Origin: a virus
Taxonomy: Duplodnaviria > Heunggongvirae > Uroviricota > Caudoviricetes
Direction: 5' to 3' (one strand)
Virus record (IMG/VR): IMGVR_UViG_2654587540_000009
Span: 1-3,799 of that record
Length of the DNA: 3,799 nucleotides
Made by a program: the position numbers and the translations under genes. Positions 1 through 3,799 of this stretch are shown here, in pieces; position 1 is the first letter of the stretch; every line of letters begins with the position of its first letter. The notes below the pieces were generated by a model, which ran no database searches, was not told the DNA's origin, and saw only the letters and a list, made by a program, of their open reading frames with translations.

Positions 1-37
1 ATGCCATTTGCTCGTTATTTCTGCATTTTCATAAACG
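1..37. repeat. Left arm of an exact 37-bp inverted repeat (partner 3179..3215); includes the outer half of crossover site A
   Basis: Reverse complement of 3179..3215 (cgtttatgaaaatgcagaaataacgagcaaatggcat) equals 1..37 (atgccatttgctcgttatttctgcattttcataaacg), 37/37. May extend left of the window. Confidence 0.95.
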
Positions 38-576
38 TTGGTTTGGGAGAAGGTTCGGCATTACCCGTTGGCGTGCCTGTTCCGTGGCCTTCCGCCACTC
101 CGCCAACAGGCTGGCTGAAATGCAACGGTGCCGCTTTTTCTGCTGAAGAATACCCGCAACTGGCAAAGGCTTATCCGACAAATAAATTGCCTGATTTACG
201 TGGTGAGTTTATTCGTGGCTGGGATGACGGGCGTGGTGTGGATGCGGGACGTGCCTTGCTAAGTCTTCAGGATGACTCTTTTGAAGCGCACAGGCATGAG
301 TCCTTTTTTTACGCGGGTATTTCTCGCAATGAAATACCATTAAAAAATCTTCCAAGTTCAGACGAGATGCTGACTTTAAGTTCTACAACTAATGCCTTGT
401 CCCCGGACGGTATTGATGCCACTAATTCGTTAATTGGTAATGATGATTACAACTGTCTGATTGAAGGAAATAAAAATAACAAACGAACAGCGACGGGGTT
501 GAGTACCAGTATTGTCGGTGCAGCAGAGACACGCCCACGTAATATTTCATTTAATTACATTGTGAGGGCTGCATGA
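1..576 (+). CDS. Side-tail-fibre C-terminal receptor-binding cassette (Sv-like), possibly 5'-partial; joined to crossover site A
   Basis: Translation ...NVGLGEGSALPVGVPVPWPSATPPTGW...RNISFNYIVRAA matches the C-terminal region of lambdoid side-tail-fibre proteins as I recall them (...PWPS... and ...FNYIVR.A ending). The frame is open from nt 1, and the first 12 codons (MPFARYFCIFIN) lie in the 37-bp repeat arm and are not fibre-like. ATGA overlap with the downstream tfa at 573..576. Confidence 0.8.
   Translation: MPFARYFCIFINVGLGEGSALPVGVPVPWPSATPPTGWLKCNGAAFSAEEYPQLAKAYPTNKLPDLRGEFIRGWDDGRGVDAGRALLSLQDDSFEAHRHESFFYAGISRNEIPLKNLPSSDEMLTLSSTTNALSPDGIDATNSLIGNDDYNCLIEGNKNNKRTATGLSTSIVGAAETRPRNISFNYIVRAA
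26..51. other. Crossover site A (gix/pix/hix-like 26-bp recombination site), core dinucleotide 38..39
   Basis: ttttcataaacg|tt|ggtttgggagaa has two 12-bp half sites of the form TTnnnnnAAAC(C/G) and GGTTTnnnnnAA around a 2-bp core, as in Gin/Hin/Cin crossover sites (gix is TTCCTGTAAACC-GA-GGTTTTGGATAA as recalled). Encodes I-F-I-N-V-G-L-G-E in the fibre frame. Confidence 0.8.
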
Positions 577-1178
577 TGTATAACGCCATCTTGAATAGTA
601 AATTTATTGCCACAAAGGCAGGAGAGATTACCGTTTATAACTATGACAGTGAGACACGGGAGTATATTTCTGCATCAACTGAATATCTTGCTGTGGGTGT
701 CGGTATCCCTGCATATTCCTGTTTAGATGCTCCTGGCACACATAAGGCTGGTTATGCAATCTGCCGTTCGGCAGATTTAAACTCATGGGAATATGTGTCA
801 GACCATCGCGGTGAAATCATCTATAGCACCGAAACAGGAGAATCGAAAGAAATCACAGCTCCGGGTGATTATCCTGAAAATACAACCACTATCGCCCCGT
901 TAACGCCATACGATGAATGGGATGGTGAGAAATGGGTAACAGATACTGTGGCACAGCATAGCGCCGCAGTAGGCGCGGCAGAAGCACAGCGTCAGTCACT
1001 GATTGATACTGCAATGGCTTCCATTAGTCTGATTCAGCTGAAATTGCAGGCCGGACGGAATCTGACGCAGGCAGAAACCGCCCGACTTAACGCTGCGCTG
1101 GATTACATTGACGCGGTGACGGCAACAGATACCAGCACCGCGCCGGATGTCATCTGGCCTGAACTGCCGGAGGCGTAG
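573..1178 (+). CDS. tfa: Tail fibre assembly protein (Tfa / Mu U-like chaperone)
   Basis: 201 aa. C-terminus ...DYIDAVTATDTSTAPDVIWPELPEA resembles the conserved Tfa C-terminus (lambda Tfa ends ...VDTSTAPDIEWPAVP as recalled). GAGGG Shine-Dalgarno at 564..568; start overlaps the fibre stop (ATGA). Confidence 0.85.
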   Translation: MMYNAILNSKFIATKAGEITVYNYDSETREYISASTEYLAVGVGIPAYSCLDAPGTHKAGYAICRSADLNSWEYVSDHRGEIIYSTETGESKEITAPGDYPENTTTIAPLTPYDEWDGEKWVTDTVAQHSAAVGAAEAQRQSLIDTAMASISLIQLKLQAGRNLTQAETARLNAALDYIDAVTATDTSTAPDVIWPELPEA

Positions 1179-1593
1179 GCCATTCAATATCTGGCGCACC
1201 GGAAGTATCGACCAGTTCCAGTGCGTCCAGATAATCCAGCCACAAATTATATTGCGCCAGTTCCTCACCTTTCAGACGACCAATAGCGGCTTTACCGGGC
1301 CATTGCTTACTGTTCATGTATTCGTTGGCTTGGTTAATTAGTAGCTGTCTTTCTGATTCAGTAATTTCAATAAGCTCTTCATGCGTGGGTGGAGGAATAT
1401 CTGCCCACGCAGGCAGCCCATCATCTCCGGCAATACGGATTTTTCCTTGTAGCGGTTCAGCCATAAACTCACTGATAATATTTTGATTTACTTCCTTAGC
1501 GTCTGATAAATCCCATCCCTCTGATTTATATTTATCAATCATATCCACAGGGAAAAAAGCATTATGCCTTGCGCTATAAACATATTCGTTCAT
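1150..1593 (-). CDS. tfa: Tail fibre assembly protein, second type (Tfa'), cognate to the minus-strand fibre
   Basis: C-terminus ...LDYLDALELVDTSGAPDIEWPTPPAVQAR carries the same Tfa motif. I place the start at the ATG 1591..1593 (MNEYVYSARH...); the track's GTG at 1600..1602 sits inside the AGGGTG Shine-Dalgarno-like sequence. The 3' end overlaps the plus-strand tfa by 29 bp (1150..1178), convergently. Confidence 0.8.
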   Translation of the reverse strand: MNEYVYSARHNAFFPVDMIDKYKSEGWDLSDAKEVNQNIISEFMAEPLQGKIRIAGDDGLPAWADIPPPTHEELIEITESERQLLINQANEYMNSKQWPGKAAIGRLKGEELAQYNLWLDYLDALELVDTSGAPDIEWPTPPAVQAR

Positions 1594-1613
1594 ATAAATC
1601 ACCCTGAATAAAA

Positions 1614-2276
1614 TTACTCACCAACAGCCCACCAACTGTAATTCATCGATACCGTGTCGCTGGTTGATGACGTTCTGTAAGCAGAATTAAAGCCGGTTAA
1701 CGTTGGGCCTTCTGCAGTCATCACGAACCCTCGCCCAGCGCCTAAAGGCGCACCGCCATCACCAGAATGAGTAAGCATGGCGCAGTCCGCTTTTTTGGGG
1801 AAAGGGATGCTGAATGTAATTCTCATTGTTTGCGTCGATAATGTCGGCGTAACCGCACCACGACCATATTGCAGGATTTTCCCGTTGGGTAATTTCATCC
1901 ATCCATCACCACTGGCAAAAGAGGCCATGTCCGGTATCTGATTTTCCCCTGTCCCCACATCCCGTTTTGCCGCTTCTCCCAAACCAAGGTTTTCGAGAGC
2001 CGTTTTCACCGTGCCATCCGATTTGATATCACCAAACGGATTCTTGCGGCTTAACAGCAGAGCACGAAGCGCGGTAAGCAACTGGTCGTTTCGCCCCTTC
2101 TCCAGGCTGGCACCGGATGCCTCCACCACGCTGCAAAGCTCCTCCTGCAACATATCAAAGTAGTCATCATCCAGATCGGTGGCAGGTGTGCCGGTCTGGG
2201 GGTTACCACGGGTAAAACCGTTCTTACCCGCGCCGAACTTATCCTTCTGCGCGGTTTTCGTGTCTATACGATGCAT
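1614..2276 (-). CDS. Tail fibre protein, 220 aa, with its own start; N-terminal ~96 aa outside and C-terminal ~123 aa inside the A-B invertible segment
   Basis: ATG at 2274..2276 preceded by GGAG (minus strand, 6-nt spacer) and an in-frame stop immediately upstream. C-terminal part contains ...[19 protein letters not shown]..., resembling the G-W-x-K-L-P-x-G-x-I-x-Q-x-G motif of phage fibre receptor-binding domains. Codons 93..101 (ALENLGLGE) are encoded by crossover site B. Confidence 0.8.
1974..1999. other. Crossover site B (internal, inverted relative to A), core 1986..1987, inside the minus-strand fibre gene
   Basis: ttctcccaaacc|aa|ggttttcgagag. The first 14 nt are identical to the reverse complement of A positions 38..51 (core plus inner half); the outer half fits the consensus but differs from A. 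Encodes A-L-E-N-L-G-L-G-E on the minus strand, with the core in the same codon phase as in A. Confidence 0.75.
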
Positions 2277-2328
2277 GGATTACTCCGGATATTTAAAAAT
2301 TACGTAGGTATGCGACGGGCAGAGTTTG
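2277..2328 (-). promoter_or_regulatory. AT-rich intergenic region with ribosome-binding site (and possibly a promoter) for the minus-strand fibre gene
   Basis: GGAG Shine-Dalgarno complement at about 2283..2286. AT-rich stretch (atatttaaaaattacgtagg) between the GC-rich block and the fibre start. No convincing -35/-10 pair could be fixed by eye. Confidence 0.25.
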
Positions 2329-2646
2329 TTAAGCACACACTCGACAACGGTGTCGCCCCAGATAACCATCACGCAGCAGGAACGAACGCAACTCCGCGGT
2401 GATGGCAGCCCGTATTTCCGGTGTGTCCGGCGTCACACGGATATGAAAATCCACCGTATGTGCCACCGGCCTGAACACATACAAATCAGAGCCTGCCACC
2501 GGGGCCAGTGGCCCGATATGTTGTCTTGCCGCCGTTTCCGTTGATTCTTCCGGAATGGGATTAATCAGGTCACTGCTGGCAATCATCACACCGACAGTCC
2601 CCGTTCCCATCCAGTGTCGGTATGTCCATGCGCGGGTAGAAGTCAC
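2329..2646 (-). CDS. Hypothetical phage protein (105 aa), possibly a frameshifted continuation of the upstream gp10-like ORF or a tail-completion remnant
   Basis: ORF in a GC-rich block where the opposite strand translates to Arg/His/Pro-rich antisense-like peptides. Overlaps the upstream ORF by 77 nt in a different frame. No recognisable motif. Confidence 0.2.
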
Positions 2647-2938
2647 CAGAGATCATCCGGTTCCCCTTCCCGTTGCGCTGGTTAGGGGCAATGCGTGTCA
2701 TAAAACCGGCTCGCTTTTTACTGGCTCTCGGCACCATGTAACCAATCGAACGAGCCAGGCGTCCGGTCTGATAACCGGGGTTTTCACCCGGTGCCGACCG
2801 CGCACGGCGCATCACCAGCCGACGGGCATCACGCATATGACGCTGACCAATCGTGACAAACGCCCGCCGGACACGGGCGCGGTTAAAGCGCATCTCCGCG
2901 GGCTGCTGAAAATCAACGTGCAAAAAGGAAGTCGTCAT
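2570..2938 (-). CDS. HK97 gp10-like head-tail joining / tail-component protein (possibly truncated or pseudogenised)
   Basis: Segment ...RRARSAPGENPGYQTGRLARSIGY... resembles the A-P-x-x-T-G-x-L-R-x-S-I core I recall for the HK97 gp10-like family; the expected downstream Y-A-x-x-V-E-F-G-T part is missing in this frame. The 26-nt overlap with the upstream adaptor-like ORF is typical of phage morphogenesis operons. Confidence 0.3.
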   Translation of the reverse strand: MTTSFLHVDFQQPAEMRFNRARVRRAFVTIGQRHMRDARRLVMRRARSAPGENPGYQTGRLARSIGYMVPRASKKRAGFMTRIAPNQRNGKGNRMISGDFYPRMDIPTLDGNGDCRCDDCQQ

Positions 2939-3168
2939 TGTTGCCTCCGTGACTCTGCCTACATTCGCCCAGCTCCGTACACTCCAGCAGCAGAAAGCGC
3001 CGCGCCCCGTTCAGATCGCGCTGACGTTTCACCCGGTACACACTGTCACCGCAGACCACCTCATAATCAGCGGTGATCCCCCGGCGGTAACGAATGGTGA
3101 TGTAATGGGTGATGGCGTCCCCGGTCTGCGCGGTTTCCTGCCAGGTGGTGGCACTGGTCTGGATAACC
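2913..3168 (-). CDS. Phage head-tail adaptor (head-tail joining) protein-like ORF; 5' end runs into the N gap, so partial
   Basis: ...THYITIRYRRGITADYEVVCGDSVYRVKRQRDLNGARRFLLLECTEL matches the I-T-I-R-Y-R ... L-L-C-x-E C-terminal signature I recall for head-tail adaptor proteins of HK97-like siphophages. The track's ORF continues through the Ns into the repeat arm (MMPFARYFCIFIN), but reading frame across the gap is unverifiable. Confidence 0.35.
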
Positions 3169-3190
3169 NNNNNNNNNNCGTTTATGAAAA
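3165..3190. other. Crossover site C (invertase-proximal); only the outer half 3179..3190 is readable, core and inner half fall in the N run
   Basis: cgtttatgaaaa at 3179..3190 is the exact reverse complement of A's outer half (26..37). By analogy with Mu and P1 the invertase gene lies immediately beside one crossover site. Exact extent depends on the true gap length. Confidence 0.55.
3169..3178. other. Run of 10 N (assembly gap or masked bases) at the predicted core of crossover site C
   Basis: Ten consecutive n characters in the sequence; true length and content unknown. Confidence 0.99.
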
Positions 3191-3215
3191 TGCAGAAATA
3201 ACGAGCAAATGGCAT
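3179..3215. repeat. Right arm of the 37-bp inverted repeat; includes the outer half of crossover site C, 29 bp upstream of the pin start
   Basis: Exact reverse complement of 1..37. Homology on the inner side cannot be assessed because 3169..3178 are N. Confidence 0.95.
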
Positions 3216-3244
3216 CATTCCTGCTTTTGTCAGGGGGATCTACC

Positions 3245-3799
3245 ATGCTTATTGGCTATGTACGCGTATCAACAAATGACCAGAACACAGATCTACAACG
3301 TAATGCGCTGAACTGTGCAGGATGCGAGCTGATTTTTGAAGACAAGATAAGCGGCACAAAGTCCGAAAGGCCGGGACTGAAAAAACTGCTCAGGACATTA
3401 TCGGCAGGTGACACTCTGGTTGTCTGGAAGCTGGATCGGCTGGGGCGTAGTATGCGGCATCTTGTCGTGTTGGTGGAGGAGTTGCGCGAACGAGGCATCA
3501 ACTTTCGTAGTCTGACGGATTCAATTGATACCAGCACACCAATGGGGCGTTTTTTCTTTCATGTGATGGGGGCCTTGGCTGAAATGGAACGAGAACTGAT
3601 TGTTGAACGAACAAAAGCTGGACTGGAAGCTGCTCGCGCACAGGGACGAATTGGTGGACGTCGTCCCAAACTTACACCAGAACAATGGGAACAGGCCGGA
3701 CGATTAATTGCATCAGGAGTTCCTCGCCAGAAGGTGGCGATCATCTATGATGTTGGTATATCGACACTGTATAAGAAGTTTCCGGTCGGAGATAAATGA
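3245..3799 (+). CDS. pin: Serine DNA invertase, Pin/Gin/Cin/Hin family (184 aa)
   Basis: MLIGYVRVSTNDQNTDLQRNA... N-terminus with the catalytic Ser in the VRVST motif, ...VVWKLDRLGRS... resolvase-fold core and a C-terminal helix-turn-helix (...QKVAIIYDVGISTLYKKF...). Closely resembles e14 Pin as I remember it. GGGGGA Shine-Dalgarno at 3233..3238. The upstream in-frame ATG at 3209 would add a non-conserved 12-aa extension and lies inside the repeat arm, so 3245 is preferred. Confidence 0.95.
   Translation: MLIGYVRVSTNDQNTDLQRNALNCAGCELIFEDKISGTKSERPGLKKLLRTLSAGDTLVVWKLDRLGRSMRHLVVLVEELRERGINFRSLTDSIDTSTPMGRFFFHVMGALAEMERELIVERTKAGLEAARAQGRIGGRRPKLTPEQWEQAGRLIASGVPRQKVAIIYDVGISTLYKKFPVGDK

Follow-up and report, generated by a model that had tools for sequence, protein, structure and literature searches.

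The 3,799-nt window analysed here (IMG/VR virus record IMGVR_UViG_2654587540_000009, positions 1 to 3,799; Caudoviricetes) opens with 37 nt that recur in inverted orientation beside a pin invertase gene, and in the frame of an adjoining tail-fibre tip these 37 nt encode an atypical hydrophobic leader. Is the arm a duplicated leader that is translated, the dead end of a fibre constant region, or part of the DNA that controls the invertase? The bases themselves are as a preliminary description had given them. The arms (1-37 and 3179-3215) are exact reverse complements of each other (100% complementary) with the translation MPFARYFCIFIN, and the + strand ORF at 1-576 opens MPFARYFCIFINVGLGE. The tandem ATGs noted at the right-hand arm are borne out by a minus-strand ORF ending at 3218, which opens MMPFARYFCIFIN, and an in-frame TAG (the reverse complement of 3240-3242) lies about 8-9 codons upstream of the position-1 ATG. 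The fibre-like ...TVKTALENL that had been set against this leader is also present; it is followed by GLGE and is encoded by the outer flank of a second crossover site (site B), inside a 220-aa fibre ORF on the minus strand.

As a genomic feature, the pair of arms was not confirmed, so the observation stands in part. The limits of the 37-nt repeat are those of missing data: the window edge at position 1 and the end of a run of ten Ns (N10) at 3178. From sequence comparison, we conclude that the window is very probably a mis-oriented scaffold of an e14-type prophage remnant with a Pin-driven tail-fibre switch, in which a single flank of pin would have been counted twice. The interpretation first given to the arms is partly supported. 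Here, we describe the locus and its relatives, then the scaffold, and then the leader itself.

Genes and crossover sites of the locus

Judged by its genes and crossover sites, the locus is a tail-fibre switch of the Din family (Hin/Gin/Cin/Pin), of the e14 P-segment type, and as such a known system (Table 1). It contains two tip types (Collar and Gp53-like_C) and two convergent Caudo_TAP genes; Pfam searches of the window also detected a baseplate-J fragment and a head-completion fragment. A pattern search found exactly two full 26-bp crossover sites in the window, both with 0 mismatches, inverted relative to each other and with matching AA/TT cores, where 0 are expected by chance. Site A consists of an outer half-site (26-37) and an inner half-site (40-51), the latter encoding GLGE. 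Site B lies within the StfP-like gene, whose constant N-terminal part (1988-2276, 96 codons) crosses it into a gp53-like tip (1614-1985). The pin product shares 177 of 184 residues with K-12 PinE, and the spacer upstream of pin has the same 29-nt length in 65 of 77 loci.

Table 1. Coordinates of the features of the locus, in window positions.
Feature	Position	Strand	Description or basis
Pin-proximal outer flank	1-25		Reverse complement of pin upstream region; 29 nt from pinE ATG in L001, L004, K-12
Leader plus silent tip ORF (StfE-like)	1-576	+	12-codon leader and collar-type cassette; Pfam Collar 1.7e-15
Crossover site A (12 + core + 12)	26-51	minus	Reads TTCTCCCAAACC AA CGTTTATGAAAA; core 38-39
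Tail-fibre assembly chaperone (Tfa), silent cassette	573-1178	+	Pfam Caudo_TAP 4.3e-31
Tail-fibre assembly chaperone (Tfa), expressed cassette	1150-1602	-	Pfam Caudo_TAP 1.2e-29
Complete StfP-like fibre gene	1614-2276	-	Pfam Gp53-like_C 3.1e-12
Crossover site B	1974-1999		Reads TTCTCCCAAACC AA GGTTTTCGAGAG; core 1986-1987
Scaffold gap, ten N	3169-3178		Two contigs joined; head-closure gene fragment 2913-3168(-) interrupted
Second representation of pin flank (outer half-site plus 25 nt)	3179-3215		Start of pin contig; equals L004 6037-6001, minus
TGGCATCAT, candidate extended -10 element of pin promoter	3210-3218	+	Other strand gives the tandem ATGs
pin 5' leader (29-nt spacer) with GGGGGA Shine-Dalgarno sequence	3216-3244	+	Sequence
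pin, Din-family serine invertase	3245-3799	+	Pfam Resolvase 1.5e-51, HTH_7 3.9e-13
Candidate recombinational-enhancer homologue	3263-3334	+	Counterpart of the enhancer annotated in P1 cin, gene nt 19-90

In this type of switch, Pin would invert the ~1.95-kb segment between sites A and B (40-1985), so that the constant N-terminus of the fibre gene (96 codons) continues into the other tip cassette, which comes with its own Tfa. After inversion of 40-1985, it is the collar-type tip to which these 96 codons would be joined. In either state, the flank would supply the pin-facing cassette with an in-frame ATG and 12 codons, and because of this gain gene callers report MPFARYFCIFIN... at the start of that cassette. 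It had been proposed that any cassette lying against the arm gains an ORF that starts at the ATG, and this agrees with the annotation of such ORFs as "phage tail protein" or "gp53-like" beside pinE. Both orientations are represented in databases, with one or the other tip beside the same pinE flank in different genomes, and the PGAP name of the ORF ("phage tail protein" or "gp53-like domain-containing protein") depends on which cassette faces pin.

The cassettes themselves are variable. Among loci L009-L088, one and the same leader plus GLGE leads into at least six cassette starts that are unrelated to each other (AAKRDVGTG..., GSALPVGVPVPW..., GANWVMLPGG..., ARYVIQRGANANG..., GAPAIGVPFFWPS... 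and ETINKASGAMQK...), which shows that tips are exchanged as modules at the crossover site. For the middle of the collar-type tip (window 254-525), megablast gave no match in the e14 copy of strain TUM1880; the cassette ends match that copy at 93-95%, a pattern that points to a hypervariable, mosaic receptor-binding region. The two Tfa genes converge and overlap over their last 29 nt (1150-1178). Their conserved C-terminal motifs, LDYIDA and LDYLDA, are encoded by the two halves of an imperfect 18-nt inverted repeat (1097-1114 and 1223-1240).

The closest known relative is the P segment of e14 in Escherichia coli K-12 (pinE, stfP/ycfK, tfaP, tfaE and stfE), reportedly described by Plasterk & van de Putte in 1985. 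The switch has been known since that year, and the start of the leader ORF is already annotated, both in PGAP ("phage tail protein") and in K-12, whose stfE (b1157; L089 3120-3656), marked as a pseudogene, starts at a distance of 29 nt from pinE. Gene order and geometry are alike in the two loci: Pin is 96% identical to PinE, the ATG is the same, the 29-nt spacing between pin and stfE is the same, and the crossover core repeat TTGGTTTGGGAGAAGG is that reported for K-12 (PMC12529663). The leaders differ by two non-synonymous changes (MPFARYFCIFIN here vs MPFACYFFIFIN in K-12), and the middle of the tip cassette diverges from e14. The surroundings differ as well; the prophage remnant here is without ymfQ and most tail and baseplate genes and adjoins proBA (proA/proB), whereas K-12 e14 sits in icd.

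The remnant is heavily decayed in window 2277-3168, where ~636 bp are missing relative to strain TUM1880, a loss that takes in the 3' end of the baseplate-J gene and the greater part of ymfQ. What is left of the baseplate-J gene (2329-2646) runs near 2640 straight into remnants of head genes, namely a hypothetical ORF and the head-closure gene, and among complete genomes strain 18AR0366 alone has this junction at 100%. On the other side, the natural neighbours of pin (L004 1-5971) are TetR, adenosine-deaminase-family, Ham1-like, SIR2_2 and putative AbiC genes, which together look like a defence island.

Two more distant switches help to place the flank. In the Mu G segment, inverted by Gin, 67 nt separate the segment boundary from the recombinase start, as here, and the gin flank (L091 370-436) carries a TGGCATGAT block at -35 from the gin start, like e14. 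Mu also has an in-frame ATG 37 nt outside the core, reading MPCVPKSTIIQNLGLQE into the silent S' cassette. However, the Mu leader peptide, MPCVPKSTIIQN, is unrelated to the e14-type leader, the Mu half-sites are part of a longer 34-bp repeat, unlike those here, and Mu curators treat S' as nothing more than a C-terminal fragment, giving it no separate start. The P1 C segment has a homologous invertase, Cin, and the enhancer annotated in P1 is identical to the corresponding stretch of pin at 57 of 72 bases (55 of 72 for Mu); that stretch of pin is a candidate Fis-dependent enhancer. In P1, however, the 5' side of cin faces lydC rather than the invertible segment, and both the TGGCAT block and a flank-derived leader are absent.

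Scaffold structure and the second arm

The window matches bases 45-3843 of NCBI scaffold JWJM01000128.1 (L008; assembly GCA_000806195.1) letter for letter. In that record, the inverted repeat is 81 nt long, running from the first base of the record to the N10 gap, and it covers the 29-nt spacer as well as 15 nt at the start of pin. The arrangement can be compared directly with a gap-free 190-kb contig, L004, which has a single pin and a single flank. Window 1-3168 corresponds to L004 6001-9168 at 100%, and window 3179-3799 corresponds to L004 6037-5417 (minus strand), also at 100%, overlapping window 1-37. Because L004 matches at 100%, the right-hand copy would be the same single flank, upstream of and overlapping window 1-37, and the supposed duplication of the leader beside pin is very probably an artefact of scaffolding. 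This mis-join is read from identical gap-free assemblies, not from the raw reads of the source strain.

Other genomes agree with the layout of L004. The ordinary one-pin arrangement is also found in L001, L002, L003, L005, L006 and K-12 MG1655, and beyond window 3168 the gap-free sequence L007 runs on inside the head-closure gene, with GGATAACC continuing as TTCGCCCATG. The 84-nt flank is carried by 941 complete E. coli genomes; its median copy number there is one, and it always lies at the junction of pinE and the fibre tip. The layout of the window (>=80% of the window in one place) was found in 0 of 20,395 complete E. coli records. The exact 191-aa product of ORF 1-576 occurs in six contigs, which are the source and five other assemblies. 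A scan of genome, viral and metagenome contig collections for the rare deletion junction (window 2625-2660) gave no hit. The preliminary description had also placed the arm outside any long constant region and had pointed to the sequence upstream of position 1 as the place to look; that sequence is the 5' region of pin with an in-frame stop, and the natural context of the arm is a divergent pin start 29 nt upstream together with this stop.

How the scaffold arose can be sketched. The 3.2-kb contig and the pin contig, which would overlap by 81 nt, would have been left unmerged, and the small contig would have been flipped and then joined to the pin contig across the N10 gap. The real genome would have a single pin, transcribed away from the invertible segment, with its ATG 67 nt from the core of the pin-proximal site. 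In the inverted state, window 40-1985 (+) would be followed directly by AA and then by 3179 onward (+), and because of this adjacency read pairs from an inverted sub-population would support the scaffold join. It is therefore plausible that the inverted state of the segment caused the scaffolder to flip the contig. A counter-point is that the right-hand arm stops precisely at the boundary between half-site and core (3179), beginning CGTTTATGAAAA; inversion heterogeneity alone does not predict an end at this position, since both states share sequence to position 52. The exact contig end may be a k-mer effect (81-nt overlap), a coincidence, or the mark of a pin paralogue whose sequence departs from this one upstream of an 81-mer that the two share. 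Two independent draft assemblies, L007 (1-47) and L008 (1-44), both break 44-47 nt upstream of position 1, in the first codons of pin, and the multi-copy paralogues pinE, pinQ and pinR, or inversion, may routinely fragment assemblies there.

The same data bear on two other accounts of the arms. Were the window truly contiguous, it would hold a 3.2-kb block between inverted pin flanks, with a third site or a nested larger unit of a Min- or shufflon-like kind. The right-hand arm does open exactly at the outer half-site CGTTTATGAAAA, and 7 of the 12 bases of the contig end GTCTGGATAACC agree with the consensus for the inner half-site, but the junction is a run of Ns, the left arm runs off the record, and the full sites number two, the "third" being a half-site against the N10 gap. 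With the 100%-identical gap-free contig ordinary and the layout in none of the 20,395 records, we hold a contiguous block to be very unlikely. A pseudo-crossover site at the contig end GTCTGGATAACC was also considered and rejected: its natural continuation, TT CGCCCATGTCCG, is without a right half-site, and the polarity of its core is wrong for inversion with site A. The other account, put forward in the preliminary description, takes the arm as a dead copy of the end of a fibre constant region, like the 34-bp repeats of Mu, with both outer flanks derived from one duplicated fibre sequence. It has in its favour that the outer half-sites share 7 of 12 bases in the same frame (INV vs ENL). Outside the 12-nt half-site, however, the outer flanks of sites A and B are alike at 4 of 25 bases, which is chance level, and the flank is conserved together with the recombinase upstream region across e14, P2-like and Mu lineages. 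The resemblance fails, and descent from a fibre gene seems to us scarcely credible. The reading as a mis-oriented scaffold with one flank counted twice is the one we carry forward.

Constraint on bases 1-37

Taken as DNA, bases 1-37 combine 25 nt from upstream of pin with the outer half-site (12 nt), and they end exactly at the crossover core. The ATG at 1-3, which is the annotated 5' end of the stfE-type ORF, is the complement of the CAT in the TGGCATCAT block. A TGGCAT(C/G)AT block stands at -35/-36 from the recombinase start in seven lineages (e14-like loci, K-12, pro483, SEN8, Chris1, YP3 and Mu), and its conservation and position suggest that it is probably the extended -10 element of pin. 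A sigma-70 consensus scan of the natural intergenic region between pin and the fibre tip found no promoter or terminator on either strand. The lambdoid phage mEp237, with an invertase that is 55% identical and a gp53-like tip whose beginning is nearly the same, has neither the TGGCAT block nor the leader, and a stop (TAA) lies two codons before GLGE there (upstream of L096 301).

The composition of the arm accounts for the character of its translation. The arm is 43% T vs 25% for the window, with T at the second position in half of its codons, and it is because this strand is T-rich that the peptide is hydrophobic and rich in Phe, Ile and Cys. When flanks were shuffled with the half-site held fixed, an in-frame ATG without a later stop arose in 17% of them.

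Conservation of the leader was assessed in an alignment of 77 IMG/VR loci, which comprise 25 distinct 51-mers (haplotypes). The ATG and the 37-nt spacing to the core are kept in all 25 haplotypes, with no indels and no stops, and both are also kept in Mu, SEN8, Chris1, YP3 and pro483. Variable columns at codon positions 1/2/3 number 2/1/0 within bases 1-9, 3/3/2 within 10-18 and 4/2/2 within 19-37, and the third-codon-position excess expected of translated sequence is not seen across these haplotypes. At codons 4-6 the changes are radical (ARY, TTV, SHN, TLY, ACY, DRY). The overall pattern is one of two conserved DNA blocks with a variable spacer of fixed length between them. An AGGA or GGAG motif precedes the ATG by 3-4 nt in e14 and P2-like loci, and there is none such in Mu.

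Altogether, these comparisons favour constraint at the DNA level, on a recombinase control region and a crossover half-site, over selection on a peptide, and this suggests that the ATG owes its conservation to the control region of the invertase itself and not to a coding role. Against a view in terms of DNA alone, the ATG and the open frame are present in every examined haplotype that has the block.

The position-1 ATG as a possible start and its bearing on StfE2

Work on the K-12 element gives this ATG a particular interest. Kirigo et al. (NAR 2025; PMC12529663) describe how PinQ and PinE invert the P segment of e14, name the two forms StfE and StfE2, and report that ~30% of K-12 carries the inverted P segment; both orientations coexist within cultures (Goldberg 2014). 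StfE2 is the ORF that runs from the stfE start, which is the leader here, and ends in the gp53-like tip of StfP after inversion (PMC12529663). Its equivalent would form in the present locus upon inversion of 40-1985; the window as it stands has the collar-type tip facing pin. When supplied from a plasmid, StfE2 cuts T2 adsorption to 3-12%, and inversion-locked and inverted strains differ in T2 survival (PMC12529663). The function described for StfE2 in PMC12529663 is that of the plasmid-borne gene only, and native initiation at the ATG is not demonstrated there. Deletion of stfE gave a colonisation phenotype (Da Re et al. 2013), and other mentions of stfE in the literature are indirect or treat it as a pseudogene. 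The gene has been placed in the YmfT iModulon with e14 late genes. Since ~30% of K-12 cells hold the inverted segment, the "stfE" RNA may come from a fusion transcript promoted from stfP rather than from a promoter of stfE itself.

The preliminary description had offered, as its other option, a short leader that lets the abutting cassette be translated as a truncated tip. This coincides with an already published assumption, still a putative one, and the comparative data lean against a selected peptide. In its full form, the position-1 ATG would be a genuine start, and the short leader would yield a receptor-binding tip (StfE or StfE2), free and with a truncated N-terminus, that may mask receptors and act against phages. 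An artefactual duplication is consistent with this reading, which is about what 1-37 does. The invariant ATG, its 37-nt distance to the core and the open frame speak for it in the 25 haplotypes and in Mu, SEN8, Chris1, YP3 and pro483, as do the AGGA/GGAG motif of the e14 and P2-like loci, the effect of plasmid-borne StfE2 on T2 with the orientation-dependent differences in T2 survival (Kirigo et al., PMC12529663), and the colonisation phenotype of the stfE deletion (Da Re et al. 2013). There are also counterweights. There is no third-position bias, the middle codons change radically, and in Mu the peptide is unrelated and a Shine-Dalgarno-like motif is absent. The conserved block on the recombinase side suffices to explain conservation of the ATG, and mEp237 is without both block and leader. 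Shine-Dalgarno spacing is short where the motif exists (AGGA 3 nt from the ATG), the scan gave no promoter-like site on the + strand, stfE is a pseudogene in K-12, and Mu S' is curated as a C-terminal fragment. PMC12529663 gives no native promoter or transcript start, Western blot or mass-spectrometry evidence at the ATG; stfE deletions also take out a crossover site, and the "stfE" RNA can stem from the inverted sub-population. On balance, we regard a genuine start as unlikely. The broader proposition that every Din-type fibre switch makes two products at once, a full fibre from one cassette while the "silent" cassette gives a free, truncated receptor-binding tip, strikes us as improbable.

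For invertible loci in general, which are present in both orientations within cultures, the window carries a caution: short-read scaffolds can yield spurious inverted repeats and apparently duplicated leaders. For the e14-type switch, whether the stfE start is used natively bears on the 2025 claim of an anti-phage role for StfE2. If the start were genuine, the free tip could be a receptor mask, a decoy or an anti-phage factor, which would generalise the StfE2 claim.
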